Source: a virus
Lineage: Duplodnaviria; Heunggongvirae; Uroviricota; Caudoviricetes
Length of the DNA: 64,000 nucleotides
Direction: 5' to 3' (one strand)
Virus record (IMG/VR): IMGVR_UViG_650377940_000003
Location: 23,323 to 87,322 of that record
Shown here: positions 1 to 37,905 of the stretch, one piece after another
How the letters are laid out: each line of letters begins with the position of its first letter
Position numbering within the stretch: the stretch's first letter is position 1
The notes under the pieces: model-generated
The model's database searches: none
What the model was told of the DNA's origin: nothing
The model's input: the letters and a program-made list of their open reading frames with translations, nothing else
Translations under genes and position numbers: made by a program

Positions 1-3000
1 AACTACGGCTTTGTATCATAGAAGCAGAGCTATTCTTTGCCAGCTGGTCACTGAACCACTTATCAGGATTTCCACCCATCTCAAATAGGCGAGATGTAAT
101 ATCAGCAGGAATTACGCCATCACCAGTTTCAAGATAAGTGTAACGACCAGAAGCAGGCTGGCGTACCAACATTTCAGGACCAACTTCATCAACGTTATAA
201 GTGCCGTCGTGTTTGATTTTCTTATCGCCAGATGCCTTCTTGCCCCAATTCCAGAACCAGAATTTAGAACCCCAGAATTTATCCCATGCGGATTGTTTCT
301 TTTCCTCTGGCTTATTCTCTTCGGCTATAGTACCCTGTGTGGCATTTACTGTAAGATTCGTAATGCCAGTGGCTTTCTTTGTGTTTTCGGCGGTTTCAGA
401 ACTACTATTCGCAGTGTCTTTTGTATTTTCAGCGGTTTCTTTACTCTTGCCGAAAATGTCTTTACATAGATTTACGATTCCACCAATCGGACTGATGTCC
501 CAGAAGAACGATGCAACAGACTTTATTGCTTTTTTGCCAAAACCGTCTTCTTTGTTAGACCAGATTTCTTTTTGATGCTTTATACCCTTTACACCGCTAT
601 AAATACCAAGACCAGCCGCTGCAGCAAGACCACCAACAACAGGGATTGCAGAAGCGCCAGCAGCACCTATAGCACTAACAGCACCTTTGATAAGTCCGCC
701 AGCACCAGTGACTAGTTTTCCTGCGCCTTTAATAAGAGTGGAACCAATCTTGCTCTTACTAACAGCATTACCGACAGCTTTGAATCCATCCACAACCGTG
801 GAAACAATACCGCCGCCTTCGCCAGAACCGTTAAATAGGCTCTGAGCACCAGCTTTGATTTTCTTCCAGATGCCACTAAATGTTTCAACAAGTCCGTTTC
901 CTGAAGTCTGAACTTTACTCCTTAAAACGTTGAAGAAATTCTCGACTACATTAGCGGACTCGCCAGTCGCTTCTTCGCCACCCTTATTGAAGAATCCTTT
1001 TATCGTATTCCACAGACCTTTTGTACCGAGGTCTTTGTACTCGCCAGTCTTAATTGCAGAATACAGATTATTTACCTTCGTGAGCGTATTGATCAGTGAT
1101 TCAAGGTTTGTGATCAAATTCTGGATGCCGGTGATCGCGCTGCCAGTATTCAAGCTTGCAATAATCTTATTGTGATAGCCGTCCAGTGAGCCCTCCATCT
1201 GAGATAAACTCATCTTTTGAATCTGCGCAGTGTACTCAAGCTCCTTCTGGTAATCCTTCCAGCTCTTGCCGATATCATCCATGACCTCAGACAACTTGTC
1301 CTTGAACTCATTGTACTTTTTGATCTGGTCGTCAATAGCCTTTTCAGCATCCTTGTTATTCCACTCGCGCTGCTTATCCGCAAGGTCTTCACGTGCAGTA
1401 CGCACATCTTCGGCGTTTGCCTGCCACTCGTAGCCATTCTCAGTGTACACACGGGTCGTGCGCTGTTGCTGGGCGCGGGCGAGAGCATCTTGTGCCTTGG
1501 AAAGTTCAATAGCACGTTCGGTAGCTTCGTTGTTTTCTTCCAGAGCTTCCTTCTGCTTATTCAGGGCTTCAATCCGCTTGTCGATGACTTTGCCCATAGC
1601 ATCGCCCCAAATTTTGAGGTCGTTGTTGGATTTATCATTTAAGCCGGAGAGGAGAGAAAGGAAAGAAGACAGAACGTCTTTTGCATCGGATAGAGCGGAC
1701 TTGAATTCCTCGATTACCTTTTCGACACCATCCCAGTGCTTTTTCAGTTTTGTTGTAACCTGTGCGTCGGTCTCTTGAACTTCGAGAAGAGCCTTTTCCA
1801 AAGCGTCATCAAGTTCCTTCTGAACTTCGGCTTTTTGCTTGAGAGCTTCGTCTTCTGATAGATCCTTGTTAGAATCAATGGCAGACATTTTCTTTGTATA
1901 TTGTGCTAAGACTTTCTGATACGTTGCAGTCTTCTTTGCAAGCTCCACATACTCATCATGGGTTGGCTCACGCACATCATCAATCATTGCCTGAACTTGA
2001 ATACCAATCGGACTACCTTCAAACTCTTTTGCAAATGCACTCAGTTTATCAACGTAGCTTTGGCGAAGCGCCTTTACGTCAATTTTAGCGTTACCATCCT
2101 CATCGTAAGTAAGTAGATTAGAAAACTCTTCAGGAAGTTCCTGCAGCTTCTGCATGGTATCCTGTGTCAGCTGGCCGGTAGTATTCCACTCGTCCATCGC
2201 ATCTTTTAGCGTGCTCCAATTAGTCTGGTATTTGTCCAACTCGGTATTTACACGCTCAAGGTCAGTTCCAAGACCAACAAGATAATCACTAACAGAAATT
2301 TTGCCACTTTCAATATTTGCCTTATCAGAACTTAACGAGTTTGCAAGCGCAGTAGCCGCAGCACCACCGGTTTCGTTTGCAGCTTTTATGCGCTTATCCA
2401 ATTCATCAAGAGTCGCTTTCTTAAACGCCTCAGTGTTGAGATTGATGTTCCCGTTTTTGTCAACGAGATTATCCATCAAATCCTTGTTATCACCAAAGAA
2501 CTTGCTCAGTTGCAAGATAGACTCTATCTTACTTTCTGTTGCATCAAGGTCACCAACACCGAATTGACTATTCTTGATTTTCTGCTGAATATCATATAGC
2601 CCAGAAAATGCGGATTTTATAGCGTCCGTCTTTTCCTTGGCTTCATCCATCGCGGTGCCGTAGCCCTTGATGGCATCAGTAAGTTGCTCAAAAGAAATGG
2701 TTTCGGAATCGACACTAGAGTTCAACCAGTCGAGAATCTTCTTCATCTCGCCAGCAGACTTGCCACCATCATTAGCTGCATTCGCTTCCTCAAGCTGCGC
2801 TCTGACAAAAGTGCGGAATTTTGCGGTGTTAAGCTCAAGTTTTCCATTTTGCTCAGTTAAGCAAGCAGTAAACTTATCATCAACACCGATTAACGACTTC
2901 ATGGTGTCTGCACTAATATAGCCATACTGGTTATATTCTTTCATCGCTTTTGTTAACGTATCAAAAGCAGATGACAGGTCAGCAACAGATTTAGAAGTTG

Positions 3001-4936
3001 TACTAGATGATTTTCCAGCATTTTTAGAAGATGAGCCGAATCCATTCAACTGATTTGTTAATGCTTGCCCACCCTTTAAAGCGGCATTCATATTGGTGTA
3101 CAGCAAAGAAAGCTGAGTATTTGTGCGATTCGTGATTTCCTCTAGTTTTGCAGGATCTACGCCGCGTTCGCCGGCCTTCTCTACTTCATTTGCAAACTCC
3201 TGAGCCGCACTGTATGTCGCAGTAGCCGCAGTAGCATTTTTCAAGGCAGGAAGAAGATTTTCCAGAGCAGTCTTTTCAGCCTCTGTTTTTTCTTTTAAAT
3301 CATCAGTGCTTTCAGCCGTATCATCGGCAGTAAGGTTTGCGACCTCATGTTGTGCGTTAGACAGAATTGTTGCCGCAGCTTCTGCGTATTCAGCAGCAAG
3401 TAACTCGGCATAACTCTGTTTATTTATCTGAAGCCTACCATTAACAAGCTCAAGGCAATTCAGATACTCGGTGTTCATCGTCAGTAAAGACTGAAGAGAA
3501 TCGAGACTCATGTAGCCATACTGATTGTACTCTTCCATTGCACTGGTAGAAGCTTTATACGCAGACTGGATTTCATCCATTTTGGAAGAAATATCCTCCA
3601 TCTTCTGTGCGCCAGCAGCCAATGCGTCAACACCATTTGCAGAAGACTGAGCTACAATACCAACTTGAACAAGTGCTTGGATAAACGCATTTACACCGTT
3701 TGTGTCAGCAGAGAAGTCCATGTCGGTCAAAGCTTTACGAAGATTTGTGAGAGCTTGCGCTTGCTCGTCTGATAATCCTTCGTTTGTGCCCCATAAGAGC
3801 TCGTTTAACTTACTTGCATCAAACCCATCAATGGTATTTTTTAGAGTTTCGATTGCAGAATTGACCTTATCGAAACTATAGCTTACGTCCATACCATTGC
3901 TTTTGCCGTCGCTCCAAAAGTCAATAGCTTGAAGCTTTCTACGAGCGTTTACATTCTCGTTAACAGCATCCGTTGAGTCGTTGTAAGAATCTACATCATC
4001 ACGGAGAGCAGATTGCTCATCCATTAAATACTTATAAACGGTATTGTACGCACCGCCTGCCGCTCTCTGTGCTTCTGTTGTGTTTTGTACAATATAATCC
4101 AGTGCTCGTCCAAGTTCAGAATAATACTTTGCGATAGAATCTGGATCATTCAAGTCCTTCGCACCAAAACTACCATTCTTATTAAAAACATCAATACCAG
4201 CATCTTTTAACTCGTTCATAATACCACGATTGGTATTGGCGGAAACAGAACTAAAGAAATGTGAACGATTGTTGTCTTTTGCGGTTTTAACTAGCTTATT
4301 GCTTTGAGCATCCTTGGATTGAATCAACTTCGATTCGGAAGCTTTGAGCTGTTCTTCTGTGATATCCTTCAGCAAACCAAGCTGTTCTTCATATTTTCCA
4401 TTTTGAAGATCAAGCTGATTTGCTTTATTTTCGTCAAGAGTGCCTTGTTCTTTTGCAAGAGCCAAAAGTTCCTCTTGGATATCCGTTGCTTGGTCAAAAT
4501 CTTCTGTACTCCAACCAGACTTGTCGCCAAGTTCTTCGTAGGCATCAACTAGATCCTTTAAAGAGGAAGTGGCATTTTTAGCTGCGTCAGCTTCCTCTTT
4601 AGTCTTTGTAGCCGCAGTATCGATTCGCTGTGCGTAATCAGCTATGGCGGAAACGACTCCGTTTATTGCCATTCCAATTAACGCACCAACAGCCATCGAC
4701 AAAGCGAGATTTAGTGCTTTTGCCGCGAATGTTGCTGCCCTCATCGAGAGAGTCAAACCGTCAGTTGAGGCTTTACTTCTTATTGAATATTTGATAAAAT
4801 CAAAGAAAGAAGTCCCAGCTCCACGCTCTGCTACATCTAGCGATAAAAATTCCCTGTAAAGATTTCGTATTTTTGTTATTAGGCCAGTAATATGATTATT
4901 GTCATCAACGTCAAAAACGTTCATGAAAGATAATAT
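1..4936 (-). CDS. Tail tape measure protein, exon 2 (runs off the window start; spliced protein >2680 aa)
   Basis: Missing from the ORF track because no stop lies in the window. Manual translation of sampled stretches is open: ILSFMNVFDVDDNN... at the start, repeats like AMKEYNQYGYISAD / AMEEYNQYGYMSLD, and the C-terminal motif YNVDEVGPEMLVRQPASGRYTYLETGDGVIPADIT. Confidence 0.85.
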   Translation of the reverse strand, partial: MLSFMNVFDVDDNNHITGLITKIRNLYREFLSLDVAERGAGTSFFDFIKYSIRSKASTDGLTLSMRAATFAAKALNLALSMAVGALIGMAINGVVSAIADYAQRIDTAATKTKEEADAAKNATSSLKDLVDAYEELGDKSGWSTEDFDQATDIQEELLALAKEQGTLDENKANQLDLQNGKYEEQLGLLKDITEEQLKASESKLIQSKDAQSNKLVKTAKDNNRSHFFSSVSANTNRGIMNELKDAGIDVFNKNGSFGAKDLNDPDSIAKYYSELGRALDYIVQNTTEAQRAAGGAYNTVYKYLMDEQSALRDDVDSYNDSTDAVNENVNARRKLQAIDFWSDGKSNGMDVSYSFDKVNSAIETLKNTIDGFDASKLNELLWGTNEGLSDEQAQALTNLRKALTDMDFSADTNGVNAFIQALVQVGIVAQSSANGVDALAAGAQKMEDISSKMDEIQSAYKASTSAMEEYNQYGYMSLDSLQSLLTMNTEYLNCLELVNGRLQINKQSYAELLAAEYAEAAATILSNAQHEVANLTADDTAESTDDLKEKTEAEKTALENLLPALKNATAATATYSAAQEFANEVEKAGERGVDPAKLEEITNRTNTQLSLLYTNMNAALKGGQALTNQLNGFGSSSKNAGKSSSTTSKSVADLSSAFDTLTKAMKEYNQYGYISADTMKSLIGVDDKFTACLTEQNGKLELNTAKFRTFVRAQLEEANAANDGGKSAGEMKKILDWLNSSVDSETISFEQLTDAIKGYGTAMDEAKEKTDAIKSAFSGLYDIQQKIKNSQFGVGDLDATESKIESILQLSKFFGDNKDLMDNLVDKNGNINLNTEAFKKATLDELDKRIKAANETGGAAATALANSLSSDKANIESGKISVSDYLVGLGTDLERVNTELDKYQTNWSTLKDAMDEWNTTGQLTQDTMQKLQELPEEFSNLLTYDEDGNAKIDVKALRQSYVDKLSAFAKEFEGSPIGIQVQAMIDDVREPTHDEYVELAKKTATYQKVLAQYTKKMSAIDSNKDLSEDEALKQKAEVQKELDDALEKALLEVQETDAQVTTKLKKHWDGVEKVIEEFKSALSDAKDVLSSFLSLLSGLNDKSNNDLKIWGDAMGKVIDKRIEALNKQKEALEENNEATERAIELSKAQDALARAQQQRTTRVYTENGYEWQANAEDVRTAREDLADKQREWNNKDAEKAIDDQIKKYNEFKDKLSEVMDDIGKSWKDYQKELEYTAQIQKMSLSQMEGSLDGYHNKIIASLNTGSAITGIQNLITNLESLINTLTKVNNLYSAIKTGEYKDLGTKGLWNTIKGFFNKGGEEATGESANVVENFFNVLRSKVQTSGNGLVETFSGIWKKIKAGAQSLFNGSGEGGGIVSTVVDGFKAVGNAVSKSKIGSTLIKGAGKLVTGAGGLIKGAVSAIGAAGASAIPVVGGLAAAAGLGIYSGVKGIKHQKEIWSNKEDGFGKKAIKSVASFFWDISPIGGIVNLCKDIFGKSKETAENTKDTANSSSETAENTKKATGITNLTVNATQGTIAEENKPEEKKQSAWDKFWGSKFWFWNWGKKASGDKKIKHDGTYNVDEVGPEMLVRQPASGRYTYLETGDGVIPADITSRLFEMGGNPDKWFSDQLAKNSSASMIQSRS

Positions 4937-4956
4937 CATTTTTGAGGAGAATAAAT

Positions 4957-5370
4957 ATGGATAAATATGTACGCTACTGCCCGTTATGTGACAAGTATTA
5001 TCCCCAAAATCAAATGCTGTGCGCATTTTGCTTTAGAGATGTCATATTATCGCCTAAGTGGAATAGTATGAGCCAGCAAAAGAAAATCAATTGGAAGTTT
5101 GAGCATCTGCCGCAGGTTGACATTTCAACACTTAGCGAAGATTCGCTCAAAAAAATGCAAGATAAAGCCAACGCCTTTGATGCTCAATATAGAGCCGAAT
5201 TAGAGGAGAAAGAACATCCGAAATACGTTCCTACCTGCCCAACCTGTCATTCGCCTGATATTGAAAAGATTAGCGGGACCAGTAAGGTTGTTGATGCAGT
5301 AGTCTGGGGCATTTGGTCCAAAAAGGCAGGGAAGACATTTAAATGCCGGAATTGCGGTTACGAATGGTAA
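4957..5370 (+). CDS. Zinc-ribbon (CxxC) hypothetical protein, antisense cargo inside TMP intron
   Basis: ATG at 4957 after GAGGAG; CPLC..CAFC at the N-terminus and CPTC..CRNC at the C-terminus. Confidence 0.75.
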   Translation: MDKYVRYCPLCDKYYPQNQMLCAFCFRDVILSPKWNSMSQQKKINWKFEHLPQVDISTLSEDSLKKMQDKANAFDAQYRAELEEKEHPKYVPTCPTCHSPDIEKISGTSKVVDAVVWGIWSKKAGKTFKCRNCGYEW

Positions 5371-5391
5371 GGTGTATCTAACTAAAATGAC

Positions 5392-5424
5392 ATAAATAAA
5401 GCCCCTGCTAAAATCTAGCAAGGG
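5392..5424. terminator. Terminator-like hairpin between convergent cargo genes
   Basis: CCCCTGCTA-aaatc-TAGCAAGGG, followed by a U-rich tail on the minus strand. Confidence 0.6.
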
Positions 5425-5443
5425 TGTGTTTACTATATTCAAT

Positions 5444-6061
5444 TTACCGCAAACACCATCTAGCAAGATGAGAATTCTTGTTATCGTACAGAAATTCAAA
5501 ACGCTTAACGTGGCACATCGGAACACACATTACTGTGCTTATAGGATGCCTTGATGCTTCGTCCATATCTTTTCCATCTGGCGTAGTTGCAGAAGAATGA
5601 TGGCTTAAAGTGATGTATTCATCATCAACGGTGTCAATACGTCCAAGAATATATGTTCCATCATCCAAATAAAGAAGAACATTAGTTTGCCCTTCTGCAT
5701 CAATATGTCTTGTCCAAATATTATCGGCAGTATCTACACCAAAATGTTTTGACGCCTTCCAGCGAACCCATACACAATTCTTTAATTTAAAATATACAAT
5801 TGCTGACAGGATACCAACAACAGAGTAGACCACAACAATAGGAAAACCATTGAGTCCAATGTGTGCTTTCGATAAAAACGTGTCGATATAGTCAACGATA
5901 TATTTTATTACAAAACCGATTGATACGCTAAGTGCTAAGAAACTTTGCGTTTCGATTTTCTTTAATGCCAATTTAGTGTATAGCGAAACACATAACACGC
6001 CAGGCACAAAGACACTAAAAAGCATAGTAACATTATTTATTAGTTTTATCAGTTCTGTCAT
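5444..6061 (-). CDS. Membrane protein (DUF6338-like), intron cargo
   Basis: ATG at 6061 after GGAGG; three hydrophobic segments then a soluble beta-rich domain (LLYLDDGTYILGRIDTVDDEYITL). Family assignment is from memory. Confidence 0.6.
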   Translation of the reverse strand: MTELIKLINNVTMLFSVFVPGVLCVSLYTKLALKKIETQSFLALSVSIGFVIKYIVDYIDTFLSKAHIGLNGFPIVVVYSVVGILSAIVYFKLKNCVWVRWKASKHFGVDTADNIWTRHIDAEGQTNVLLYLDDGTYILGRIDTVDDEYITLSHHSSATTPDGKDMDEASRHPISTVMCVPMCHVKRFEFLYDNKNSHLARWCLR

Positions 6062-6230
6062 TTGCACCTCCAGTAGTTTTATTGTTATTCCGTGTTGCAC
6101 TTCTGTCTCTAAAATAAGAAATTAAAACTGATGTGTCTGCTTTTGGCTGATTCGGAGAATAGGTGAAATTACCGTCTCTTTGATAAGTTGAAATTTCATA
6201 ATCCGGCACATGCTTCTTATTGTTTTCCAT
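6033..6230 (-). CDS. Small hypothetical protein overlapping the membrane gene, intron cargo
   Basis: AAGGAG RBS; upstream TTGCTT-N17-TACACT promoter-like sequence. Confidence 0.55.
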   Translation of the reverse strand: MENNKKHVPDYEISTYQRDGNFTYSPNQPKADTSVLISYFRDRSATRNNNKTTGGANDRTDKTNK

Positions 6231-6289
6231 GATTCAACACTCCTTTTATAAGAGTGTATCACAGGATGTCGTAAAAAGCAACGCAAATT

Positions 6290-6333
6290 AAAAACGCCCG
6301 GCCTCCCAGCAGTAGGGAAGTCGGGCTTGTTTT
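6290..6333. terminator. Bidirectional intrinsic terminator
   Basis: GCCCGGCCTCCC-agcagta-GGGAAGTCGGGC, flanked by AAAAA and TTGTTTT. Confidence 0.75.
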
Positions 6334-6344
6334 ATGATGATGCC

Positions 6345-6677
6345 TTACTTCAGTTTTTCCAGAATCTCGTCTGCGCTCACACCGCTAGACAGCAACTTCT
6401 TGAGCACATCTTCGGCTTCGGCCTTCTTTGCAGCTTCCGCAACCTTTGCGTCGGCATCAGCCTTTTTCTTTTCGAGCTTGGTGATCTCTTTGTTGAGTTT
6501 TTTCAATTCTGCTTCTTTTGCTTTACGCTGGGCGTTCAGTGTAGCGATATCATCACTAATAGTTGCAATCTCCTGAGCAATAGATTCTGCGGCAGTATTC
6601 TTTTCAGCGATCTGTGCCGCGTAATCAACGCCGTCGAGAACCTTTGCTTTATTCTTGCTTCCTTTAGGACGTGCCAT
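6345..6677 (-). CDS. Small coiled-coil protein with AT-hook-like N-terminus, intron cargo
   Basis: MARPKGSKNK start then K/A/E-rich heptads; GGAGG RBS; own promoter TTGCTT(6749-6744)-N17-TATAAT(6726-6721). Confidence 0.75.
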   Translation of the reverse strand: MARPKGSKNKAKVLDGVDYAAQIAEKNTAAESIAQEIATISDDIATLNAQRKAKEAELKKLNKEITKLEKKKADADAKVAEAAKKAEAEDVLKKLLSSGVSADEILEKLK

Positions 6678-6786
6678 AATAAAATACCTCCGTATATTTT
6701 GAATACGCGATTGTACTTATATTATAGCCAGAAAATTTCAGAAAAGCAACCTCTTTTTATGTATTATAAATTACATTATAGAAATA

Positions 6787-6816
6787 TTGACATGATATGA
6801 CAGACGGGTGTATAAT
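6787..6816 (+). promoter_or_regulatory. SigA-type promoter of the putative toxin mRNA
   Basis: TTGACA-N18-TATAAT with TG just upstream of the -10. Confidence 0.75.
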
Positions 6817-6963
6817 AATGGAGCAATCAGGAGTTCCACATCGAACTTGTCCAACCATAGATGTAAAAAATAGGCGGTCACCCTCCCAGTAGCCGGAAGG
6901 CAAGAAGGAGCGTGTATTTCTTTAACTGCCTTCCGGCAATATTGTCGGAAGGAGGATGTTGCC

Positions 6964-7089
6964 ATGAATTTTGACATTCAGACTGTCTACTATGTCGCAA
7001 TGCTGTTCTTCGGTTTTGCTGGCTTTGTTAAGACTGTTCTTGAGATTTTCAAGATGCTACATCATCACAGCGAGAGCCGTGATAAGTAA
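6964..7089 (+). CDS. Putative type I toxin-antitoxin membrane toxin (41 aa)
   Basis: MNFDIQTVYYVAMLFFGFAGFVKTVLEIFKMLHHHSESRDK: one TM helix plus a charged tail; GGAGG RBS; ~140-nt structured 5' UTR. Not in the ORF track. Confidence 0.7.
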   Translation: MNFDIQTVYYVAMLFFGFAGFVKTVLEIFKMLHHHSESRDK

Positions 7090-7200
7090 AAGAGCCGCCT
7101 ATGTCCAGTAGGCAGCTCTTCATTGGGATTGAAATTGTCCAGATTTTAATTCCATTTGTTTGATGCTAACCGAGGGAACCGTCTATTGGAACTCTTGGTT
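7088..7200 (-). ncRNA. Putative antisense antitoxin sRNA (~115 nt)
   Basis: Consensus promoter TTGACA(7235-7230)-N17-TATAAT(7212-7207); ends at hairpin AAGAGCTGCCTA..TAGGCGGCTCTT-UUUU (7120-7088); convergent with the toxin gene. Confidence 0.7.
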
Positions 7201-7733
7201 GCTTTTATTATACACTTTTTAGAGTACGCTGTCAACGAACAACAGTGTACTTTTTCTTTTTATTCAATTATTCAATCATTTTTCTCTTTCTTATATCGCG
7301 CCAGAGAATAGCGCGTCTCCTCATTTCCACCTACTTCTTTAAGTCGTCTGGTTACGTCTGAGGTGGACTTCTGAACTTTCGTCCAGAACTGACTATCCTT
7401 CCAGTGGTTGCTCACTGACCCTTTTTAGTCGATGAACCTTCCACCCTCCTACATTATATAATAGGGGAGTGAATCGGCTGCTGACCGCCCATTATAAACG
7501 CTACTTAGCACTCGATTATTACCATATTTTGACAATACGATAAAACCGAGCTTTTATCTCAGCATATAGCATCCATATCCTTGTTTCTATCTTTCGATTC
7601 CTACATTATATAAATATAACAATAGGCGATATGGCTCTTAGGGTTTCCCAGCACTCTAGGGGCTATTTTATTTTTACATGGTGCCGCATCCTATATTTTA
7701 TACGCAACAAATATAAGAGGGCATATTAACTTT

Positions 7734-10700
7734 ACCCGCACCATTTTTGAGTTTTCCGCTCATCTGCATTACAGACAACACACCAGAGATGGCAGCTGTC
7801 AAAGTGGGTAATGCACCAGCAAATTTTACAGCGTTATCTGCACCGTCAACAAAAACCGTTGCAAGATCTACGAAAAACTTCGGAATATCTGACTTCATCA
7901 AGTCCGTACTGAACTTCTGGAATGCAGAATCAAGCTGATTAAGCTTCGCCTGCAATGAATCCATGTACGTCTGGTTCTCACGCATTGCGCTTCCGCTAGA
8001 ATTAAGAGCCTGTTTCATAGCATCTTCTGCAACGCTAAAATTATTCAGCAGGGCAGATGTACTCTGACCTCCACGCTTACCGGCGATCAATTCTGTAATA
8101 TTTGCCTGAGTGGTATCAGAAAGGTCTTTCCAAACCTCAGAAAGCTCCTTCATAATCTGATAGGTTGATTTGAAGGTATTATCATCCTTCATGATATCAA
8201 CCCCAGCAAGTTGCTTCAACTCAGAGCGAAGCTCAGATACGGAACTCGCCATTCCATCCGTAGCAATACCGGCATTTTCTGCATCAGTCTTTGAAGCACG
8301 AAGGTACATACTCAAAGTTTTTAGGTAAGTGCCACTCGCTTCGCTGTCCTGAAGTACGCCATTTACAGCGGCTGCAAGGCTAAGAGTCTCTTGATATGTA
8401 TTTCCGGCGGCAGACATCGCAGCAGAACTTTTCTGCATGATAATTCCGAGATCATTCATACTGACAGGCTCTGTATTCGCGATTTGGTTCATGCAGTCCA
8501 GAAGATGTTCTGCGTCGTCTGCAACCAGACCAAAGCCTTGCATTGTAGAAATCAGGTAAGAGGAGGCAGTTGTTGCGTTATCAATCTGATCTCCAACGTT
8601 AGCCATAAGCGCAGACACACGAGCAAGCTCTTCAGAGTCTTTGTCCGTATATCCGAGTCGTTTCCAGTCAGCAGTACTACTTACAAGGTCAGAAATATTC
8701 GCACCAAGCTCACGAGCATTTGTTGCAGTTCTGTCAAGATATTCATTCATCTCGTCGCCAGTCATTTTACTGACCTTTTTGAGTTCAGTTACAGCCGTAT
8801 CAAGCTCAAGAACGTTATCATAAACCTCTCGCAGACCTTGTTTGACCATTGCAACGCCAGCCATAGCGATAGCAGTCTGAAAGTGCTCTTTGAATAGACG
8901 AGACAGTTTTTGACCAAGAGTTTCAGTTTCAAGGCCAGCTTGGTGGCAAGCATTTTGGAATTTGCTGACTTTCATTTGAGCTTCTTCAAAAGAATAACTA
9001 CCATTTTTAATCGCATCAAAAAGCTCATTATATTCTGCTTCAAACTTTGAACCTTCAAATCCATGAAGTGTTTCTTTATACTGATACAGAGTACGCATAA
9101 GATTTTCTATCTTATCTGTATCAGTATTTGCTGTCTTTGTCTGACGGCTTTGCCCCAAAGCATCGTCAATATGTTTTCTCACCTGAACAAGTAAATCGTC
9201 AACTTGACTAAGTGTTGCTTTAAACTCTGTTGGACCTTTATTTTCATCCAACTGTTTCATAGCAGCATCTAGCTCTGCCAATACTTGTTGCCCAGTTTTG
9301 CCATCATCCAACACGCCTGTGTTAAATTGCCCTAAAGCAACACTATTTTTTCTTGTGAATTCCGTACTACTTAATCTATTTTGAATAGTGTTATAGGCAG
9401 CTTGCTTTGAACGGACTTGACCGTGCTTCTGTTCGGCTTCTTTCTGCAAATCCTCTTCTGATTTCAAAGCTTGCTCAATTTGAATTTTTACCTTTAGCCA
9501 CTCGTCAACAATATCACTTACTCGTTGTTTGTACGTAGCAGATTGAGTATTCATTCCCTTTAAAGAATTAAGTTGGCTTTCAAGACTACCATCAAGAGAA
9601 TTCGTCTTACTATCGCCAATAAGAACACTGTCAAAACTGTGGTTTCCGGCCTGCTCTAATTCTAATTCTTTTTTACGGATTTCAGTTAATGTTCTTCTCG
9701 CAGTGGATTCAAGGTCTTTGTATCCATCCGTGTAAACAGACATGGACGCTTTTGCACTAATAAAAGCATCATCTAAGTCTTTTACGCCTTTCTTGTATGC
9801 ATCTGAACTATGGTCTGAATCCAACTTTTTAGACGCATCAATAATACCGTCAATGGAATCTCTCAATTCTTGCGAAGCAGTGTCGCTGTCCTTAATGGAT
9901 TCCTTCCATTTCAGCGCCTGTTCCGTCATGCTCTTGACATGATTTTCAGCTTTCTTCTGAGCTTCATCAAAAGTACTCATCTGGCGAGTGGCGTCAGCCC
10001 ATGTATCAGCGACAACCTTTAATTGATTAACATAATCTTGCGTTCCGGTTTCAAGCGTGTTAAGAATATCAATCTGCTTTTGAACATCCGCAAGAGAAGA
10101 TTTTACATCAGAAGCTCCAGAAAAATTCTTATATTTATTATTGGCGTCAGCAAGATTATTTAAGTACGTATTAGTTTGATCGCTTTGTGATTTTTTTAAA
10201 GCCTTTAACGCTCCATCATTCGCGGCATTCTTTAACCCTTGAAGCCGAGCCTCAAGCCTAGAAATACTATTAGTTGTTGCTCGTTCAATTTCGGAAATTT
10301 TGCTAAACTCTTCCGTCGGAAGAATGTTTACAAGTTCTGTACGCAGCCGACCAGCTTCATTTCTAACAGCTTGAAGTTGACGTAAAACCTCTTCTAACTC
10401 TGGCTGATTCTTACCAGACGATTCAAGTTTGAGAGCATCCTTATAAAGAGAACCTTTTTCTTGAACCCTTCGGTAAAAAGCATCTAGTTTTTGTTTCGCT
10501 TCATTAGTGTTTAAGTTTACTTTGACTTCGGCTTTCGCATTTTTCGCGCCAGACTGTGCTTTATCAACAGCCTTTTTTACAGCAGCATCAATATTAGATT
10601 CATCTATTTTCAAAGTGAGTTTTGGAGACTCTACCTTTTTAATGATTCGCTTCAATGCGGCATTAACATTGCCGATGGTTGCGCCTTCGTTTACACCAAA

Positions 10701-10853
10701 AGCAATCTCCACAGGAGCCTTTTTAAAACTGTTTTGAACTCCTTTAAATTGATTTTTTAACTCCTCGGTAGTAGTATCAAGAACGACCTTGACCTTTATG
10801 GCCGTTACAGAGGAAGTATCAGCACTACTTGCGTTGTTTGTATTATCCGCCAT
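7734..10853 (-). CDS. Tail tape measure protein, exon 1 (~1040 aa)
   Basis: ORF 7698..10865; likely ATG at 10853 after GAGGTG. Long helical protein with a TP901-type TMP core (ELDTAVTELKKVS...SADWKRLGY...ITELIAGKRG). Coding ends ...KNGAG at a GGU| group I 5' splice site. Confidence 0.88.
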
Positions 10854-10983
10854 ACCGTTGGTCACCTCTCTTTTCCATTTTCAACATTCCTTTCAAAACA
10901 AAAAAGAGAAGCGGCCAGCTCCTTAAAGCCAGCCCTCCTCTCATTGAATTTTATTCCAAATAAATCCTCATAAAAGATGGCTT

Positions 10984-11527: not shown

Positions 11528-12517
11528 TCAAATCTCAAACCGATCCTTTGCGGACTGAATCTTTGTCGTATCCTTTTTGATGTAATACTTGTTGGTCACA
11601 TCCGTGCCAGCATGGTTGAGCAGGGAAGAGACATCTTCCAGACTCATACCCGCATTCTTCAGCAGGGTAGCACCACTATGCCGGAAATCATGCGGATGCA
11701 GCGTAGGCTCATCAATCATCTCACCTATCTTCTTACACCAGTCCCCGGCAGTGCTTGAGGTAATCGGCATCCATACACCATTGATTTTCGTACCAACAAA
11801 CACATAGCCGCCATCCTCAATATCATGCTCAGTACGGTATTCCTTCAGCTCTTTCAAAAGCTCAGAAACCTCCTTGCTGAACATCAGATCAACAATTTTT
11901 CCTTCCTTCTCCAGAACGTCATGCACCATACGGTTCTCATAATCGATAGACTTCCAGAGTGTATTCCGCACAGCGTTAACACGAGCCATCGTGGATAGCG
12001 AGAACAGTGCGTACAGACGCAGTGTCATCGCATTATCCTTCATGTGAACTGTGGTCGCAGATTCAACCAGAGTGTTCAGCTTCTCTCGCATCAATTTAAC
12101 CTCATCCGGCGTAAGGTATGTCTGCTTCACAACAGCCACATCCTTGGTCGGTCGGTCAATGAACTCCATCGGATTCTCTTTGATGATTTTTTTCTTGCGA
12201 AGATACCGATATAGCGCAGAAATCGTGCTCATGCGCCGCTTCATACGAGCAGAGTTGTTTCCGTGCTTCTTACAGTAGAACAAAAATTCCTCAATATCCT
12301 CTTCTTCAAGTTCCGTCACAGGAGCATTACCCTGATTATCCAGAACATAAATCATCCACTGCTTGAAATCCGATTCATAATTGTAAACAGTAGACGGGCT
12401 GAGGTCGCGGATGCCCATATCAGTCTCATATCTATCCCAGTATTTCAAAGACACTGAATTTACGTTCTTGAACTTCTCAGCATCCCATAACTTCAGCGGT
12501 TTACTTCTTGTAGCCAT
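11528..12517 (-). CDS. Tyrosine recombinase (XerC/D-like) in the tail module
   Basis: SAM-like core-binding N-terminal part; catalytic R (TMAR), HDFR, LNH and Y (TNKYY) present. Confidence 0.9.
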   Translation of the reverse strand: MATRSKPLKLWDAEKFKNVNSVSLKYWDRYETDMGIRDLSPSTVYNYESDFKQWMIYVLDNQGNAPVTELEEEDIEEFLFYCKKHGNNSARMKRRMSTISALYRYLRKKKIIKENPMEFIDRPTKDVAVVKQTYLTPDEVKLMREKLNTLVESATTVHMKDNAMTLRLYALFSLSTMARVNAVRNTLWKSIDYENRMVHDVLEKEGKIVDLMFSKEVSELLKELKEYRTEHDIEDGGYVFVGTKINGVWMPITSSTAGDWCKKIGEMIDEPTLHPHDFRHSGATLLKNAGMSLEDVSSLLNHAGTDVTNKYYIKKDTTKIQSAKDRFEI

Positions 12518-13062: not shown

Positions 13063-13536
13063 TTATCTCCCTTTCGTCTGTGCTTGCTTTAATTTCTTTC
13101 GCTCTTTTCGAGCTTTTTTTAGGTCGTCATAATCGACCCAGCCTCCATCAATTTTGGAGTATGTAATCCAGCGGTAATCTACATCAGGATACTTGAACCA
13201 GAACATCTTGCGCTTCATCAGCGCAACACTATCAGCGAATCCCTTCGTATCAATCACTTGTTTGCTGCCATCTCGATATGTAATTTCATAGTCCGCCACA
13301 TAATCAATCTTCCGCACCGCTACGTCCTTTCCGTCCTTATCGACCCGGCGGAACGCTTCCTGCAGAATAAAGGGGACTTGCTTACGACACTCTATAATTT
13401 CACCGCTTGCCAGCCTTGGCAATACAATATCTCGATAAAACAACATTTCTGCCTTACTATCATAAACTACGCCGTCATATGTTCTATCTGCTGGATTCTT
13501 ACTGACATTAAACTTTGTTCTGTTCTTTTTCTCCAT
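13063..13536 (-). CDS. DUF1064-like PD-(D/E)XK endonuclease
   Basis: YDGVVYDSKAE...QVPFILQ...YVADY...VIDTKG motif pattern. Confidence 0.7.
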   Translation of the reverse strand: MEKKNRTKFNVSKNPADRTYDGVVYDSKAEMLFYRDIVLPRLASGEIIECRKQVPFILQEAFRRVDKDGKDVAVRKIDYVADYEITYRDGSKQVIDTKGFADSVALMKRKMFWFKYPDVDYRWITYSKIDGGWVDYDDLKKARKERKKLKQAQTKGR

Positions 13537-23099: not shown

Positions 23100-24725
23100 T
23101 CACTTACTATCTTCATTTCTCTGCTGGTCATAAATTTGTTTTTCAGTTTCCTCGCCCTTTGGACGGCCTGTTTTTTTATCACTGTCACCACCGCCGGAAC
23201 TACCGGTCGATGTATAAGAGGTCTGGCGAGCCACAAACACATCGTCATAACCTTCTTCGGTTTCGGCCTGACGCTTGCGTAGTTCGTCCTCGGCATGAAG
23301 TCCCATATACTCGTAAGCAGTCTTGTAAGAACAGTTCAAAGTGGTAAACAGGAACTGAGCAATCGCCTTCTTCATCTCCATACCCATCATTTCAGTAGTA
23401 GAGACCTTCACATCAGGGCAGTACATTGGGTCTACACCTGCGTCTTCAAGGCGAATACGATACCAGCGTTTTAATACATCTTCAATCTGCTCTGCAATCT
23501 TACCAATATTTTTCATCAACTGGTCAAGAGACACTTTTGCAGTTGAAACAGTCTGCTGACCATCAGTATTCAAGAAACTAATACCCAAAGCAGCCATCTC
23601 TCTGTTGCGATACTGCTTGACAGTCTCGATATTTGTCATCTCGACCTTCGGCTCAACATACTTAATATCCTTGACATAGGGAGCGGTCGTTACAAGTACG
23701 GTATTTTGCTTCCATGCACGCAACAGGTTGTCATGTGCTGTCACCTGTTCAGAGAAACCCTTCTTGTCGTTGTTTGGTCCCATCAACGCAGGATCAAGTT
23801 GCTGCCAGATTATTTTCTTAGCCTTTGCCTTAGCGTTCACACGGTCTGAAGTATCAAAGGTCTCAAGCATCAATGCCGGACGTAAGGCGCGGAACAGGGG
23901 AGAAACACCATATTTTTGCCCCATATTGCCAATACGAATTACGCCACAATGGTCAACATCCAATTTTGCATATGTATCACCATTCTTAAACGCCTGATAC
24001 ACCTCGTCTGGATAGTTGCTCTGAATCTCGGTCTCCTGATTTTCAAAGAATAGTGCTTTATTCTTCTTATCCTTCAGCATAGATTTGCTCAAAGCGGATT
24101 TCAGCTTAGACATATTAATAAGCACAACAGGCTGTCCATTTGATAAGTAATCACTTATCTCAGCAATACCAAGAGGGTAGTAGTCTACAATGTAGTTCTC
24201 ATCCTTCTGACGCAGATATGTAATGTAAGTGCCCTCTGCATAAGTCATCGGAATGGCGGCACGAAGCAGACTTCGCACATTGATTTGTGTATTGAAGTCA
24301 TCAATCACTTCACGGGCATAATTTACCTGTTTTGTCTTATTACGCTGCTCGGGGAACTGCGCGAAACTGCATTTGAACTCCGTATTAACATTCGCCTCAA
24401 TCGCATCATAAGTAATGCCAATCAGGTCATCCTTATTGATGTAATTACGGATGATGCCATTGACCGTCTGCACATTCGTCAGGCTTGACTGTAACCCTCG
24501 TGCAAGTTCATCAATTCTGTCAACCGTCAGCGTTTCAGAGGAGGCTGAAATTTTCAGGTATGTACTATATTGCTTATTTTCAGGATCATAGGATGCGATA
24601 GCATGGCGGATAACATTGTCCATTCTTTCTTCTGAAAGCTCGTTTACAGATGTAAGCACAACAGTACCATCATCTGTCTGTGAAGCAGTCACGACATCAA
24701 AATCTTCCTTTTTCTTTCTTGCCAC
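23100..24725 (-). CDS. Portal protein
   Basis: 541 aa directly after the terminase; KYGVSPLFRAL; C-terminal GRPK motif. Confidence 0.75.
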   Translation of the reverse strand: MARKKKEDFDVVTASQTDDGTVVLTSVNELSEERMDNVIRHAIASYDPENKQYSTYLKISASSETLTVDRIDELARGLQSSLTNVQTVNGIIRNYINKDDLIGITYDAIEANVNTEFKCSFAQFPEQRNKTKQVNYAREVIDDFNTQINVRSLLRAAIPMTYAEGTYITYLRQKDENYIVDYYPLGIAEISDYLSNGQPVVLINMSKLKSALSKSMLKDKKNKALFFENQETEIQSNYPDEVYQAFKNGDTYAKLDVDHCGVIRIGNMGQKYGVSPLFRALRPALMLETFDTSDRVNAKAKAKKIIWQQLDPALMGPNNDKKGFSEQVTAHDNLLRAWKQNTVLVTTAPYVKDIKYVEPKVEMTNIETVKQYRNREMAALGISFLNTDGQQTVSTAKVSLDQLMKNIGKIAEQIEDVLKRWYRIRLEDAGVDPMYCPDVKVSTTEMMGMEMKKAIAQFLFTTLNCSYKTAYEYMGLHAEDELRKRQAETEEGYDDVFVARQTSYTSTGSSGGGDSDKKTGRPKGEETEKQIYDQQRNEDSK

Positions 24726-30362: not shown

Positions 30363-30486
30363 ACATAAAACCCGTAGACACTAACCTACGGGCATAGAAA
30401 AGGAGACAACAAATGATGTCCCAAAGCAGACCTTGCGGTCGTACTTCTTTTTTAATTACCCACTTATTGGTAGGGTGTCACCGCTT

Positions 30487-34241: not shown

Positions 34242-34388
34242 TAGGTAAAACACCCTTTCAAAATAAAATAGGTAGGAAGAAAACAAGCGTCCTCGCTCTC
34301 TCCCTACCATAACTTTCCGCACTATGTTTTGCTCTACATACGCAAAATTATAACGTATCTACGTTGAAATGTCACACTTTTTCGCATT

Positions 34389-35144
34389 TCATAAATCAAA
34401 CATTTTTCTATTTTGTGCGGTTTTCTCAATATTTACGTTTTTAGCGCACTTACGGCAGTATTTTTGTCTGCGTCCGGTGCGAGCAACCATCTTTCCGCAA
34501 CAATCACACTTGATATATTCTTTCCCGCAATACTGGCTCCAGAGAATACCAGCATTCTCAAAATCGTCCACGAAAATCTCATGAGGAGAATCCGGTTCCG
34601 CGATCAAAATATGGATATTCAAGTTGTCAATCTTTTTCAAGCTAGCAAACCCAATAAAGCCAAGATTATGTAACTCACAGATCATCTCGTTCTGTTTTTT
34701 CTCGTTTACAGATACGTTTGCCATCCTGAAAATATCAGCCGTATCTTCCGTGATCCAGTAGTTGCATTTTTCATTAACAGCAATATGGTATTTTGCCAGA
34801 CACAGCATCGTAAACATCAGGCGTTGCATCTGCTTGCCTTCAAGTGCTTGAATCTTCTCTACCTCAGCCTTCGTAATGCACACACCATCAAGTTCCACCA
34901 TAGGACGACCCTTTGCAGAAGCAATTGCTTTATCAATCAGCTCTCTATCTAGAACCTTGTTGTACCCTTCAAAATGACGCAGCATATACTCGTTAAGCTT
35001 TTCTCTTACGTCATCCTTTGAGTATCCCTTATAGAAATAATACTTCGCTACATAATGCAAAACATGCCCCGCTTTCTTCCAAGGCACATCCTTCTCTAGC
35101 CACTCTTCAGCGTAAAGAACTTCATTCAATACAATCATCCGCAT
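34389..35144 (-). CDS. Hypothetical protein coupled to the RNA polymerase gene, C-terminal Zn-finger
   Basis: Overlaps the RNAP stop; CDCC...CRKC. Confidence 0.65.
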   Translation of the reverse strand: MRMIVLNEVLYAEEWLEKDVPWKKAGHVLHYVAKYYFYKGYSKDDVREKLNEYMLRHFEGYNKVLDRELIDKAIASAKGRPMVELDGVCITKAEVEKIQALEGKQMQRLMFTMLCLAKYHIAVNEKCNYWITEDTADIFRMANVSVNEKKQNEMICELHNLGFIGFASLKKIDNLNIHILIAEPDSPHEIFVDDFENAGILWSQYCGKEYIKCDCCGKMVARTGRRQKYCRKCAKNVNIEKTAQNRKMFDL

Positions 35145-37905
35145 CCTCCTTGCTATTCATGTCAACCAACACATCCTTGAAACGCTTGCCGTCATATTCA
35201 ATATCGCCATTCTCATCCTGCACAAGAGAATGCACCATACCATTATGGCGTTCCAATAAGCGTTTAATCAAAGTATCATGAAACAACTCCCAGACGATTG
35301 CAATACTGGATGCATTCTTTTTACAAAGATCAAGCAGAATGTCGCAAAGCACATCGTCATTAGAACACTTGTCATGAAGATTGCGGAACATACTTTCCTG
35401 ATACAGCGCAATGCGCTCCTTGCGATCTGCGCCGGTTTCTTTATTATTGTTTCCGTTGCCAGAATGGATTGCGTTACCACGAGCAAACCTCAAGTAGTCC
35501 TTAAAGATAGAGCGGATGCCATAATACTGAGAGTTGGTATACTCAACACCAGACTTGAGCGAGTCGTAATCAAACTTGCGCTTTATCTTGAGTTCTTCTT
35601 CAAAATCTTCCAGCTCGTCCTCAACAGTCCAGCATAGGCGGTTCATGGTACAAGAATTGATTCCGACCGGCATCCGATAGAGGTAATACTGGATAACCAT
35701 TTCATCCACATCGTCCTTGACGGTCTTTTGCATAATCTCATCCAGACCGGCAAATCCATCCCACTTAATACGCTTGCGAGCTGCGGCCACATACTGCTTG
35801 TAATCACGCATCTGAGCAGGGTAGATGTAGCTCATAAAGTATGGCTTACGCCATGCGCAAATACTACTCCAGAACTTCTTATCCTCGATAGTATCAGGAT
35901 TATCATCGTCTTTAACGGCGCAAGCTTTATTGTCATACCAGTATTGCGGCATATCTGTCGTAGCTACGCCTTTTATTTTGTCGATCGCGTTTTGTTGATA
36001 AAGCTGTCCGCAGATAATGCGATATGTAAGTTCATCGTACTCTTTACTACCTTGCTCAAATTTACTTCGCACATCAAACATCGTTGTAATTCGGTTTGTT
36101 GTACGTCCAATATTATCTCCAAATCCGCTGATATTAGATTCAATAAAATCCTTTTCGGTCGGAACTTTTTTCTCGCATTTGCGCTGAACACAAAGAACGA
36201 CCGGCTCATTTACCCATTTATCAATGAGAACTCTATTGTCGGTAGAAAATGTAAGGTCGGCATCGAAATCTTCACCGTTAAGTGCTGCACACATATTATC
36301 CCACGCATTGGTGATAAACACGGACTTCATATAGCGATACCAGTATTGGCAATCATCAGATACATTCAAATTCATGCACCGAATATTTGCCATCTGACTC
36401 ATAGGAGCTCTAAAACAAGCAACCCTCTTGACGTCTCTATCATTCCAAAAACGACTGTAAACCTCACCAGCCTTCAATAGTCCGGTTACCTCCATCCGAA
36501 ACATAGACTGGCAAAGCGCATATGGATCGCCACTCGCAACTTGAAAATTCCCTCGTACCTTTACAACACCCGTTTTTGCCTGAGAGATTCGCTTTTTAAT
36601 AAAGTATCGAATCCGATTCTGCACATAAGGGTCGTTAATCATTTCCGGCTCAATCATAAGAGCCTTAATATAGTCGTTTTCCAGACTGTTTATGTAATTC
36701 GGGTCATCACGCATTCCACTACCACGCAAATACAGCAACGCATCACGCCAATCACCGCCCATGACGCCCTTGATTTCGTCCAAAGTCGGCTTTACAAGCT
36801 CACGAATCTCATCATTCGTAAGCTGATAGCTTTGGATAAACTGATAATTCAGATTACGCTCCTCATCAAGCTCCAACTCACAAGTCTTGGTTACAGAGAA
36901 GTGATAGTGGTTCTCTCTACAGTTTTCAAGATAGTCCTCACAACTATGGTAACTATCCCACAGCTTCAACATAGAGGTACTAAGAACTACTTGAATCCTA
37001 TTTATATCACGATAATCTCCCCATGCGTCTTTTAGCATATTCTGTTTCGCAACCTTCTTGGCAAACTCACGGAAAGGGAAAGGGAACAACATACCTTTAC
37101 AAAAAGCATTCCGTACACAGAAGCCAGATGCGGTAGCAGGGAGTTTCAAATCTTCACTCCACTGTTGTGCAAGATCATAACTAATAAGTCCAAACCCATC
37201 ATTCGCACACAGCTCACAATCGTGTTCCTTATCTTCAACTATCGTAGGTTCTCCAGACACTCCATCGTCCAGAACAACAATATGGTCTTTAAAGCGCGTG
37301 TAGCAATCATCTATAACAAGTACACCATCAGGGTCAGTGACCGGAATAGAAGCAGAGCAAGCAAGGGCTCTATAAGCCTCTAACTTTGCAGGCACAAATT
37401 CCATACCCTTGTTACGGCCATTATCAATTCGCTTGCGGATCTCGTCAACAAGACGGTCGCTCACAAATACAATCGTACTATTCTTAACGCCACCAGTTGT
37501 TCCAACCAAACGGCGATACGTGATTCCATTGATTTTAAACCCCTTGGGAGAACACGCCCGGCGGTAGTCGTTCTTCTTGTCAACCACCAGACACATATAA
37601 TCCGGCTTAAACTGAACTGCATCCAGCTCAGTGTATAATCTCCGAATTTCCCGGCGGTTCTCTAAGCAAGAAGGTTCATTCCGTAGCATTTTGATTCTAC
37701 GCTTGATACTCCGTGCCTTAGCCTCTGCGTCCGTAACACCATTCAACTCATCAATCCATCGTAGAACAGTGCTATCAGCCAGCGAGATGATCTCGTGGTT
37801 TCGTCTGGCTTCATCTAATGGTAGGGTTAAATCCCATTTTGCTTCAACCAGACGCTTCGTATGGATCTTAAAAACAAACTTCTGGCAAGTTTGCTGTTTT
37901 GCCAT
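35122..37905 (-). CDS. YonO-like single-subunit (RdRP-family double-psi-barrel) phage RNA polymerase
   Basis: 927 aa; NDGFG, VRNAFCKG, FRAP and LNGEDFDAD motifs typical of the cellular RdRP/YonO family; SPbeta-like context. Confidence 0.85.
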   Translation of the reverse strand: MAKQQTCQKFVFKIHTKRLVEAKWDLTLPLDEARRNHEIISLADSTVLRWIDELNGVTDAEAKARSIKRRIKMLRNEPSCLENRREIRRLYTELDAVQFKPDYMCLVVDKKNDYRRACSPKGFKINGITYRRLVGTTGGVKNSTIVFVSDRLVDEIRKRIDNGRNKGMEFVPAKLEAYRALACSASIPVTDPDGVLVIDDCYTRFKDHIVVLDDGVSGEPTIVEDKEHDCELCANDGFGLISYDLAQQWSEDLKLPATASGFCVRNAFCKGMLFPFPFREFAKKVAKQNMLKDAWGDYRDINRIQVVLSTSMLKLWDSYHSCEDYLENCRENHYHFSVTKTCELELDEERNLNYQFIQSYQLTNDEIRELVKPTLDEIKGVMGGDWRDALLYLRGSGMRDDPNYINSLENDYIKALMIEPEMINDPYVQNRIRYFIKKRISQAKTGVVKVRGNFQVASGDPYALCQSMFRMEVTGLLKAGEVYSRFWNDRDVKRVACFRAPMSQMANIRCMNLNVSDDCQYWYRYMKSVFITNAWDNMCAALNGEDFDADLTFSTDNRVLIDKWVNEPVVLCVQRKCEKKVPTEKDFIESNISGFGDNIGRTTNRITTMFDVRSKFEQGSKEYDELTYRIICGQLYQQNAIDKIKGVATTDMPQYWYDNKACAVKDDDNPDTIEDKKFWSSICAWRKPYFMSYIYPAQMRDYKQYVAAARKRIKWDGFAGLDEIMQKTVKDDVDEMVIQYYLYRMPVGINSCTMNRLCWTVEDELEDFEEELKIKRKFDYDSLKSGVEYTNSQYYGIRSIFKDYLRFARGNAIHSGNGNNNKETGADRKERIALYQESMFRNLHDKCSNDDVLCDILLDLCKKNASSIAIVWELFHDTLIKRLLERHNGMVHSLVQDENGDIEYDGKRFKDVLVDMNSKEDADDCIE

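Follow-up and report, generated by a model that had tools for sequence, protein, structure and literature searches.

Introduction

The morons of temperate phages, a concept known from HK97 and HK022, are independent promoter-gene-terminator units located in late operons. Michel et al. reportedly showed in 1992 that the T4 nrdD (sunY) intron has its open reading frame (ORF) on the 3′ side of the core and requires its remote 3′ end for core activation; we know of no internal same-sense terminators in that intron. The IStrons CdISt1 and BcISt1 comprise a group I ribozyme at the 5′ side and an insertion sequence (IS) element at the 3′ side (PMC4227781, PMC4430133). A survey text describes the group I introns TMP-IVS1 to TMP-IVS3 in tape measure genes of Bacillus cereus-group prophages (PMC2504315). 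This study concerns a predicted group I intron in the tape measure gene of a virus of the Caudoviricetes, and three terminator-like hairpins (T1–T3) within it. The DNA analysed is a stretch of 64,000 nt (IMG/VR record IMGVR_UViG_650377940_000003, positions 23,323 to 87,322), which is called the window below; all positions are counted from its first letter.

Type I toxin–antitoxin pairs of Bacillus subtilis prophages, such as txpA/RatA, bsrG/SR4, and yonT/SR6, consist of a small hydrophobic peptide and a convergent small RNA (sRNA) that overlaps at the 3′ end. The late genes of the phage SPbeta are reported to be transcribed as one operon by YonO, a polymerase without the flap domain that is implicated in hairpin-dependent termination; termination by YonO was not assayed in that work (PMC5467207).

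Three Terminator-like Hairpins in the Tape Measure Intron

A preliminary description of the window reported three minus-strand hairpins with U-rich tails inside the tape measure intron, and all three were found at their places. T1 (7080–7120, minus strand) has a 13-bp stem at 7120–7090 with a folding energy (ΔG) of −18.1 to −19.9 kcal/mol and the tail UUUUACUUAU. T2 (6286–6326, minus strand) has a hairpin at 6326–6296 (ΔG −19.7 to −21.8 kcal/mol) and the U tract GUUUUUAAUU. T3 (5392–5424, minus strand) has a hairpin at 5424–5402 (ΔG −13.0 to −14.1 kcal/mol) and the U-rich tail CUUUAUUUAU. The z-scores against shuffles of each short stretch were −5.3 for T1, −3.2 for T2, and −3.6 for T3.

A uniform scanner was used for terminator-like sites; a site had to comprise one hairpin no longer than 38 nt, with ΔG ≤ −12 and at least five U in the next 8 nt. 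On the sense strand, the scanner reported T1–T3 and no other site within the 2797 nt of the intron. The intron after 80 dinucleotide-preserving shuffles gave a mean of 0.11 sites and a maximum of one. The same strand outside the intron contained 12 sites in 61.2 kb. A simpler scan reported T3 alone, since T1 and T2 fall outside its rules on loops and bulges.

All three hairpins are located between the end of the ribozyme core (~7297) and the 3′ splice site. The earlier claim that they face the direction of the tape measure transcript between these two points is thus borne out from the sequence. As in intrinsic terminators, each has a G+C-rich stable hairpin with an adjacent 3′ U tract, and each is at the end of a promoter-bearing sense unit. 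We consider it probable that T1–T3 are the intrinsic terminators of autonomous cargo units of the host-polymerase type ("morons"), which lie in the 3′ peripheral loop of the intron in the orientation of the tape measure gene, and that late transcription must pass them.

Cargo Units and Their Expression

The first sense unit starts from a promoter with a 12/12 consensus match (TTGACA-17-TATAAT, 7207–7235, minus strand). T1 is located ~115 nt past this promoter, with no plausible ORF between them. T1 would end an antitoxin-like non-coding RNA of this length, and this RNA would lie antisense to the 3′ end of a peptide mRNA that converges on it. The peptide gene (6964–7089, plus strand, antisense to the tape measure gene) has a GGAGGA ribosome-binding site (RBS) and a 12/12 promoter at 6787–6816 (plus strand), and was also called in independent assemblies. 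It encodes a type I toxin-like hydrophobic peptide of 41 aa, comprising a single hydrophobic helix and a charged tail. The uniform scanner reported a terminator-like site past this gene (7165–7202, plus strand), so the 3′ ends of the peptide mRNA and the sRNA would overlap by ~115 nt. With convergent consensus promoters and terminators, the predicted layout resembles that of type I toxin–antitoxin pairs. The peptide had no match in Pfam or PADLOC and no homology to known toxin families; one weak match to a PHROG of unknown function was found (E 0.007).

The second sense unit has a promoter TTGCTT-17-TATAAT at 6721–6749 (minus strand), whose −10 element aligns with the promoter that directly follows the core in relatives without the toxin cassette. 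Its gene (6345–6677, minus strand) is located upstream of T2 and encodes a 110-aa coiled-coil protein with the basic N-terminus MARPKGSKNK. T2 would end the mRNA of this gene. A total of 3189 homologues of the protein were found, none with a known function, and it may be the intron's own protein and not ordinary cargo. The third sense unit comprises a 65-aa ORF (6230–6033, minus strand) and a 205-aa membrane protein ORF (6061–5444, minus strand), each with an RBS, followed by T3, which would end this two-gene unit. The ORF pair (5444–6230) showed a weak match to DUF6338, under the cutoff (E 0.0013). T3 sits between convergent genes, namely the membrane protein ORF and the plus-strand gene of a 135-aa zinc-ribbon protein (4963–5370). 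The latter has a GAGGAG RBS and a weak double zinc ribbon match, and starts beside the 3′ splice site. The search of the cargo proteins in Pfam and PADLOC gave only coiled-coil noise and sub-threshold matches, and no transposase family was found among them in Pfam or PHROGs.

Four promoters with a 12/12 match were found in the 64-kb window, of which two are in the cargo. It is therefore plausible that the host polymerase expresses the cargo in the lysogen, as had been proposed; the predicted promoters are strong and of the sigma-A type. The main task of the hairpins would be to end the cargo units and to keep cargo transcription out of exon 2 and the tail genes behind it. The hairpins of the other strand would do likewise toward exon 1. 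On the plus strand, terminator-like sites were reported at 7165–7202, 7222–7252, and 7631–7666, all before the 5′ splice site. The site at 7631–7666 is the reverse complement of the P3–P5 core region; its terminator-like hairpin (ΔG −17.2) has a long U tract and is present in nearly all relatives. This hairpin may stop antisense cargo transcripts short of exon 1.

The Split Tape Measure Gene

The minus strand of the window contains an upstream frame of 1055 codons (10865–7698) with a tape measure core region, and a downstream frame of at least 1675 codons that runs from ~5026 past the window end. The ~2.8 kb between the two frames holds small genes on both strands. The Enterocloster phage PMBT24 has an uninterrupted tape measure protein of 1508 aa. 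Its residues 56–443 align to the end of the upstream frame and its residues 799–1455 to the downstream frame in colinear order, which indicates that the two frames are halves of one gene. Exon 1 (7734–10865, minus strand) has 1044 codons and the C-terminal sequence ...KNGAG. It matched the tape measure family phrog_4211 (E 2.5e-69) at profile positions 28–949 of 2625 only. Exon 2 (2–4936, minus strand) begins with ILSFMNVF and continues past the window end; no RBS-preceded start codon is present where its homology begins. Excision that joins 7734 to 4936 gives the in-frame joint ...KNGAG/ILSFMNVF.... The homology of exon 2 in relatives starts at the same codon at protein identities of 34–100%, and the start motif G^AUAUUA(U/A)CUUUC (^ marks the splice site) is kept.

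A tyrosine recombinase/integrase gene (phrog_1, E 8e-50) is located in the tail cluster at 11528–12517 (minus strand), just upstream of the tape measure gene, and a Holliday junction resolvase-like gene is located at 13063–13536. The SPbeta late region likewise has a site-specific integrase gene, yomM.

Structure and Boundaries of the Predicted Group I Intron

The predicted group I intron (4937–7733, minus strand, 2797 nt) has its core at the 5′ end and its cargo in the 3′ peripheral loop. The core, from P1 to a P9.2-like hairpin, occupies 7297–7733 (minus strand) and is conserved in relatives. The Rfam family Intron_gpI (RF00028) matched 7743–7370 over the full model with 26.9 bits (E 4e-4; gathering score 50). 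Another intron in the window reached 79.8 bits. The P7 pairing GACUA/UAGUC is present, and a J8/7-like region aligns to the model within this sub-threshold match. In P1, the exon sequence GGGU (7737–7734) pairs with GCCC (7722–7719), with a U·G pair at the 5′ splice site. In P10, the guide UAAUAU (7728–7723) is exactly complementary over 6 bp to AUAUUA of exon 2 (4936–4931). The terminal intron G is 4937, which places the 3′ splice site at 4937/4936. The 3′ motif ...UCUCCUC(N)-N4–17-G^(A/G)UAUU(A/U)... is kept across divergent exon 2 variants.

Compensatory changes were found in the core, with three pairs each in P2, P8, and a P5-type hairpin; 12 pairs of these helices were counted as changed on both sides. 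The CGCGC/GCGCG hairpin also shows a compensatory change, in locus L049, and in the group of locus L064 a synonymous exon change is matched by a change in the P1 guide. The candidate closure of the cargo loop is an 8-bp long-range helix between the 5′ strand UGAGGAGA (7316–7323, minus strand) and the complementary 3′ strand UCUCCUCA (4943–4950, minus strand). Both strands are kept in relatives with G·U-compatible variants and no decisive covariation. The UCUCCUCA strand is conserved 4–17 nt before the terminal G across highly divergent variants of exon 2 and cargo, and its reverse complement is the RBS of the antisense zinc-ribbon gene. Overall, the group I intron premise appears to hold and splicing is well predicted.

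Other boundaries were considered. A short intron ending at ~7370–7290 and followed by a short exon was ruled out; P10, the terminal G, the in-frame joint, and the homology start of exon 2 all fall at 4937/4936. The sequence G(7297)^AUAUAA(7296–7291) on the minus strand, right after the CGCGC/GCGCG hairpin, resembles a 3′ splice site with a 5/6 match to the P10 guide, and its motif GCGCGAUAUAA is present in most relatives. Splicing at 7297 would yield ...GAG-I-stop, a truncated N-half. The motif might act as a decoy, or transcripts ending at T1–T3 might use it as an alternative proximal splice site.

A 55-aa peptide across the predicted junction was searched against proteins of up to 2000 aa, a size range that the full-length fusion exceeds; none of the 120 matches listed covers both halves. 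A degenerate 24-mer of the predicted joint was searched in metagenome and viral collections and hit one contig, the same in both. The match is a chance one, since it lies inside an unrelated 608-aa ORF and its flanks do not match. With the junction peptide and the joint 24-mer, neither an intron-less allele nor a spliced sequence was found in the collections searched.

Conservation of the Intron and Its Cargo among Relatives

The intron was compared across 76 related loci from IMG/VR. The tape measure gene carried an insert of 2.1–6.1 kb in all 59 loci with both halves on the DNA, and none was uninterrupted. The first 456 nt of the insert are 93–100% identical in nearly all relatives (74% in locus L066). 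The core is better conserved than the flanking exon; its identity stays high also in a group with an exon 1 protein identity of only 68%. Of the 61 distinct intron variants, 57 contained one or more same-sense terminator-like hairpins, and the other four had no qualifying site. No near-identical DNA was found in the phage collection. The genome collection contained distant relatives only (28% identity). The NCBI assembly GCA_041328415.1 has the arrangement of this locus.

The cargo is partly constant and partly variable. The coiled-coil gene was matched in all tabulated loci but L013, and also in the more distant MT837120. The toxin cassette is a 510-nt presence/absence unit with its own promoters and T1, and T1 was found only in relatives with this cassette. 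In relatives without it, the core is directly followed by TTGAC(A/T)-17-TATAAT and the coiled-coil gene. The alignment showed that the cassette is inserted inside the promoter of the coiled-coil gene, and the sRNA promoter at 7235–7207 is homologous to the coiled-coil gene promoter of cassette-free relatives. The part of the cargo with the 65-aa and 205-aa ORFs varies among relatives, and a divergent antisense gene begins at the position of the zinc-ribbon gene. The conservation of T1 and T3 is not unusual. The T2 sequence is nearly invariant downstream of coiled-coil homologues down to 46% protein identity. Its hairpin (GCCCGACUUCCC...GGGAGGCCGGGC) is much better conserved than the preceding gene, is located at the border of conserved and variable cargo, and is also terminator-like on the plus strand.

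The core of ten relatives (L010, L011, L013, L026, L028, L034, L047, L051, L058, and L059) is broken after ~273 nt by an insertion of ~555 nt (L010:11296–11851). The insertion has no ORF above 60 aa and a strong antisense hairpin, matched no Rfam family, and may be a nested non-coding element. In MT837120.1 (L001, 5050–5530), the N-half of the tape measure protein is 58% identical and ends ~60 codons past the conserved core. A perfect TTGACA-17-TATAAT promoter and the coiled-coil homologue follow after ~330 nt. No Rfam family matched this interrupted tape measure gene, and its insert probably represents this intron in a diverged form.

The Late Cluster and the YonO-like Polymerase

The preliminary description assigned a YonO-like polymerase to 35122–37905. 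The homology supports this assignment: tblastn of this minus-strand single-chain RNA polymerase gene to SPbeta yonO gave 24% identity over ~490 aa (E 4e-16 to 2e-20), and the protein has the metal-binding motif DFDAD (DxDxD) at residues 546–550. Identity to the Enterocloster phages was 37%. In the Enterocloster phages OP172753–OP172757, the gene matches in two to three pieces over ~3.5 kb that are annotated as several hypothetical proteins, which suggests introns there too.

The 34-kb late cluster outside the cargo has no promoter with a match of 11/12 or better but one at its head. The uniform scanner reported eight same-sense terminator-like sites in the late cluster outside the intron, at 30393, 29468, 24795, 20974–20951, 18311–18290, 14813–14786, 13582–13554, and 10941, all on the minus strand. 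Most of them directly follow genes. The last (10905–10941) is a strong hairpin just upstream of the tape measure start, with ΔG −22.5 and the tail UUUUUUGUUU. In the SPbeta late region, the same scanner reported nine same-sense sites, including both sides of the tape measure gene yomI, and the SPbeta record itself annotates stem-loops in this region.

An 11/12 promoter at 34375–34347 (minus strand) is followed ~40 nt later by the strongest terminator-like hairpin of the window (34308–34271, ΔG −25.9). This pair (34271–34375) is located between the YonO-like region and the late cluster, and recalls the late promoter of SPbeta, where there is an unannotated non-coding RNA (PMC5467207).

The full-length precursor has to pass T1–T3, because the sites are inside the intron, whose 3′ splice site lies 2.8 kb away from its core. 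For the late precursor, the hairpins would be obstacles to pass before the remote 3′ splice site exists. The eight outside sites and the nine in SPbeta make read-through a general need of the late operon. A late transcription mode insensitive to terminators would be the simplest solution, probably provided by the YonO-like polymerase. Read-through by the phage polymerase, for the whole late operon, would be a reasonable but unproven proposal.

Weighing of the Alternatives

Several points weigh against the reading of T1–T3 as terminators of cargo units that late transcription passes. T1 has only four consecutive U's, the T3 hairpin is modest, and the promoter of the T3 unit is weak by consensus. 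T2 is kept as sequence and not through compensatory change, so it could serve some other function, for example by marking a cassette boundary or binding a protein. The intron core scores under the family threshold in Rfam. The literature search found no published test of YonO-type polymerases for insensitivity to intrinsic terminators. Like the read-through discussed above, termination, splicing, and the activity of the promoters are predictions from the DNA.

The preliminary description went further and proposed a polymerase-specific gate, in which the terminators would leave the YonO-like polymerase as the only enzyme able to make the full-length tape measure precursor, so that tail assembly would require it as well. 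In such a switch, formed by the internal terminators and a remote 3′ splice site held by the long-range helix, only the terminator-insensitive phage polymerase would complete and splice the tape measure message, and the host polymerase would yield only cargo products in the lysogen, namely the toxin–antitoxin-like pair, the coiled-coil protein, and the membrane protein. Several features speak for this proposal: three same-sense terminators come after the core and ahead of the remote 3′ splice site, the window encodes a YonO homologue, the late cluster is without strong sigma-A promoters, and YonO has no flap domain (PMC5467207). The intron itself is not special, however, since the rest of the late cluster and the late region of SPbeta contain comparable terminators throughout, and four intron variants have no qualifying site. 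A gate also adds nothing if the host polymerase does not start upstream of exon 1, and no published test of YonO at terminators backs it in the literature searched. The ending and insulation of cargo units is a simpler role, and we regard the gate, in either wording, as unlikely. Attenuation for stoichiometry is another proposal, in which leaky terminators would, with any polymerase, lower the transcription of exon 2 and of the low-copy tail-tip genes downstream in comparison with the abundant head and tail-tube genes. A virion needs few copies of the tape measure and tail-tip proteins, several of the structural genes upstream have same-sense terminator-like sites behind them, and T1 and T3 look moderate in strength. 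However, three terminators in series would cut a host-polymerase transcript very strongly, and the sites are tied to cargo cassettes that come and go in relatives, which fits an origin with the cargo better than a tuning of tail genes. Attenuation is distinctly unlikely in our view.

The conservation of T2 bears on whether the hairpins, T2 above all, are primarily terminators at all. T2 is nearly invariant where the adjacent protein is 46–50% identical and is at the conserved/variable border of the cargo, which could suit a recombination site, a cassette boundary, a binding site for a protein, or a 3′ structure that stabilises RNA. However, T1–T3 all have well-placed U tracts after transcription units, and T1 and T3 are not unusually conserved. 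Bidirectional terminators are also common at cassette borders, and the roles are compatible. T2 may thus be a recombination or cassette boundary, but a primarily non-terminator function of the hairpins is very unlikely. The sub-threshold Rfam score and the failure of the searches to find an intron-less allele or a spliced sequence would also suit an absence of splicing. The two frames would then be independent genes, or a tape measure gene that has been split and is in decay, and the hairpins would be ordinary terminators of an accessory island. Against this, exon 2 has no RBS-preceded start codon where its homology begins, and one uninterrupted homologue covers both halves. The geometry of P1, P10, and the terminal G and the in-frame joint are conserved across very divergent exon 2 variants, and the core covaries and outdoes the flanking exon in conservation. 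This alternative is highly improbable. Splicing in trans, which had also been suggested, would let the transcript of exon 1 and the core end at a terminator; the long-range helix and P10 would join it to a second RNA, which carries exon 2 and the 3′ strand of that helix. The 8-bp helix and the 6-bp P10 could in principle hold two RNAs. However, this pairing is short, and no sense-strand promoter-like site is present from T3 (5392) to the 3′ splice site (4937), which makes trans-splicing hardly credible.

Implications

If the reading of T1–T3 as cargo terminators is true, an essential late gene of widespread large gut phages holds a protected bay for the exchange of accessory genes that are transcribed by the host and expressed in the lysogen. 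Phage late transcription must then ignore the stop signals of the cargo, and the whole bay is spliced out afterwards. If the switch were true instead, one stretch of an essential gene would carry two polymerase-specific programmes. Under the cargo reading, the locus would be a natural test bed for whether single-chain polymerases of the YonO type disregard intrinsic terminators, and for how a group I ribozyme copes with a 3′ splice site that is thousands of bases and several terminators past its core. Annotation of these phages also calls for caution: gene calling splits the tape measure gene in two, with an "island" in the middle.

Comparison with Known Systems

Like morons, the predicted cargo units have their own promoter of the sigma-70/sigma-A type and an intrinsic terminator, are located in the late structural region, and vary among close relatives. 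In contrast to morons, they are inside a group I intron of an essential gene and not intergenic, and three sense units in series are combined with two antisense units. The predicted peptide/sRNA arrangement and its place on a large SPbeta-like prophage recall the type I pairs of B. subtilis, but the 41-aa peptide has no sequence homology to known toxin families and the pair is nested in an intron. The SPbeta late operon shares a YonO homologue upstream of a long same-strand late cluster with stem-loops and terminator-like sites. It differs in that yomI is annotated as a single uninterrupted gene, and the two polymerases share only ~24% identity.

Among introns, the IStrons are similar in their Firmicutes hosts, in the position of the core at the 5′ end, and in a kilobase-scale coding load ahead of a remote 3′ splice site. 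Unlike IStrons, no transposase or IS element was found in the cargo in Pfam or PHROGs. The load here consists of accessory genes that can be swapped and that bring promoters and terminators of their own, and the element is fixed at one site of a phage gene. With the sunY intron, the locus would share a 5′-terminal core, a long insert after it, and the pairing of a remote 3′ segment back to the core, here through the candidate helix, whereas sunY carries a homing endonuclease. TMP-IVS1 to TMP-IVS3 likewise are group I introns that split a prophage tape measure gene; promoter- and terminator-bearing cargo is present here, and none turned up in a term search of the survey text (PMC2504315). Tape measure introns of prophages, kilobase loads before a remote 3′ splice site as in IStrons, and morons were thus already known separately. 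What appears to be new is their combination, in which several promoter- and terminator-bearing units, sense and antisense, are predicted to lie in the ribozyme loop of an essential gene in a large family of gut phages.

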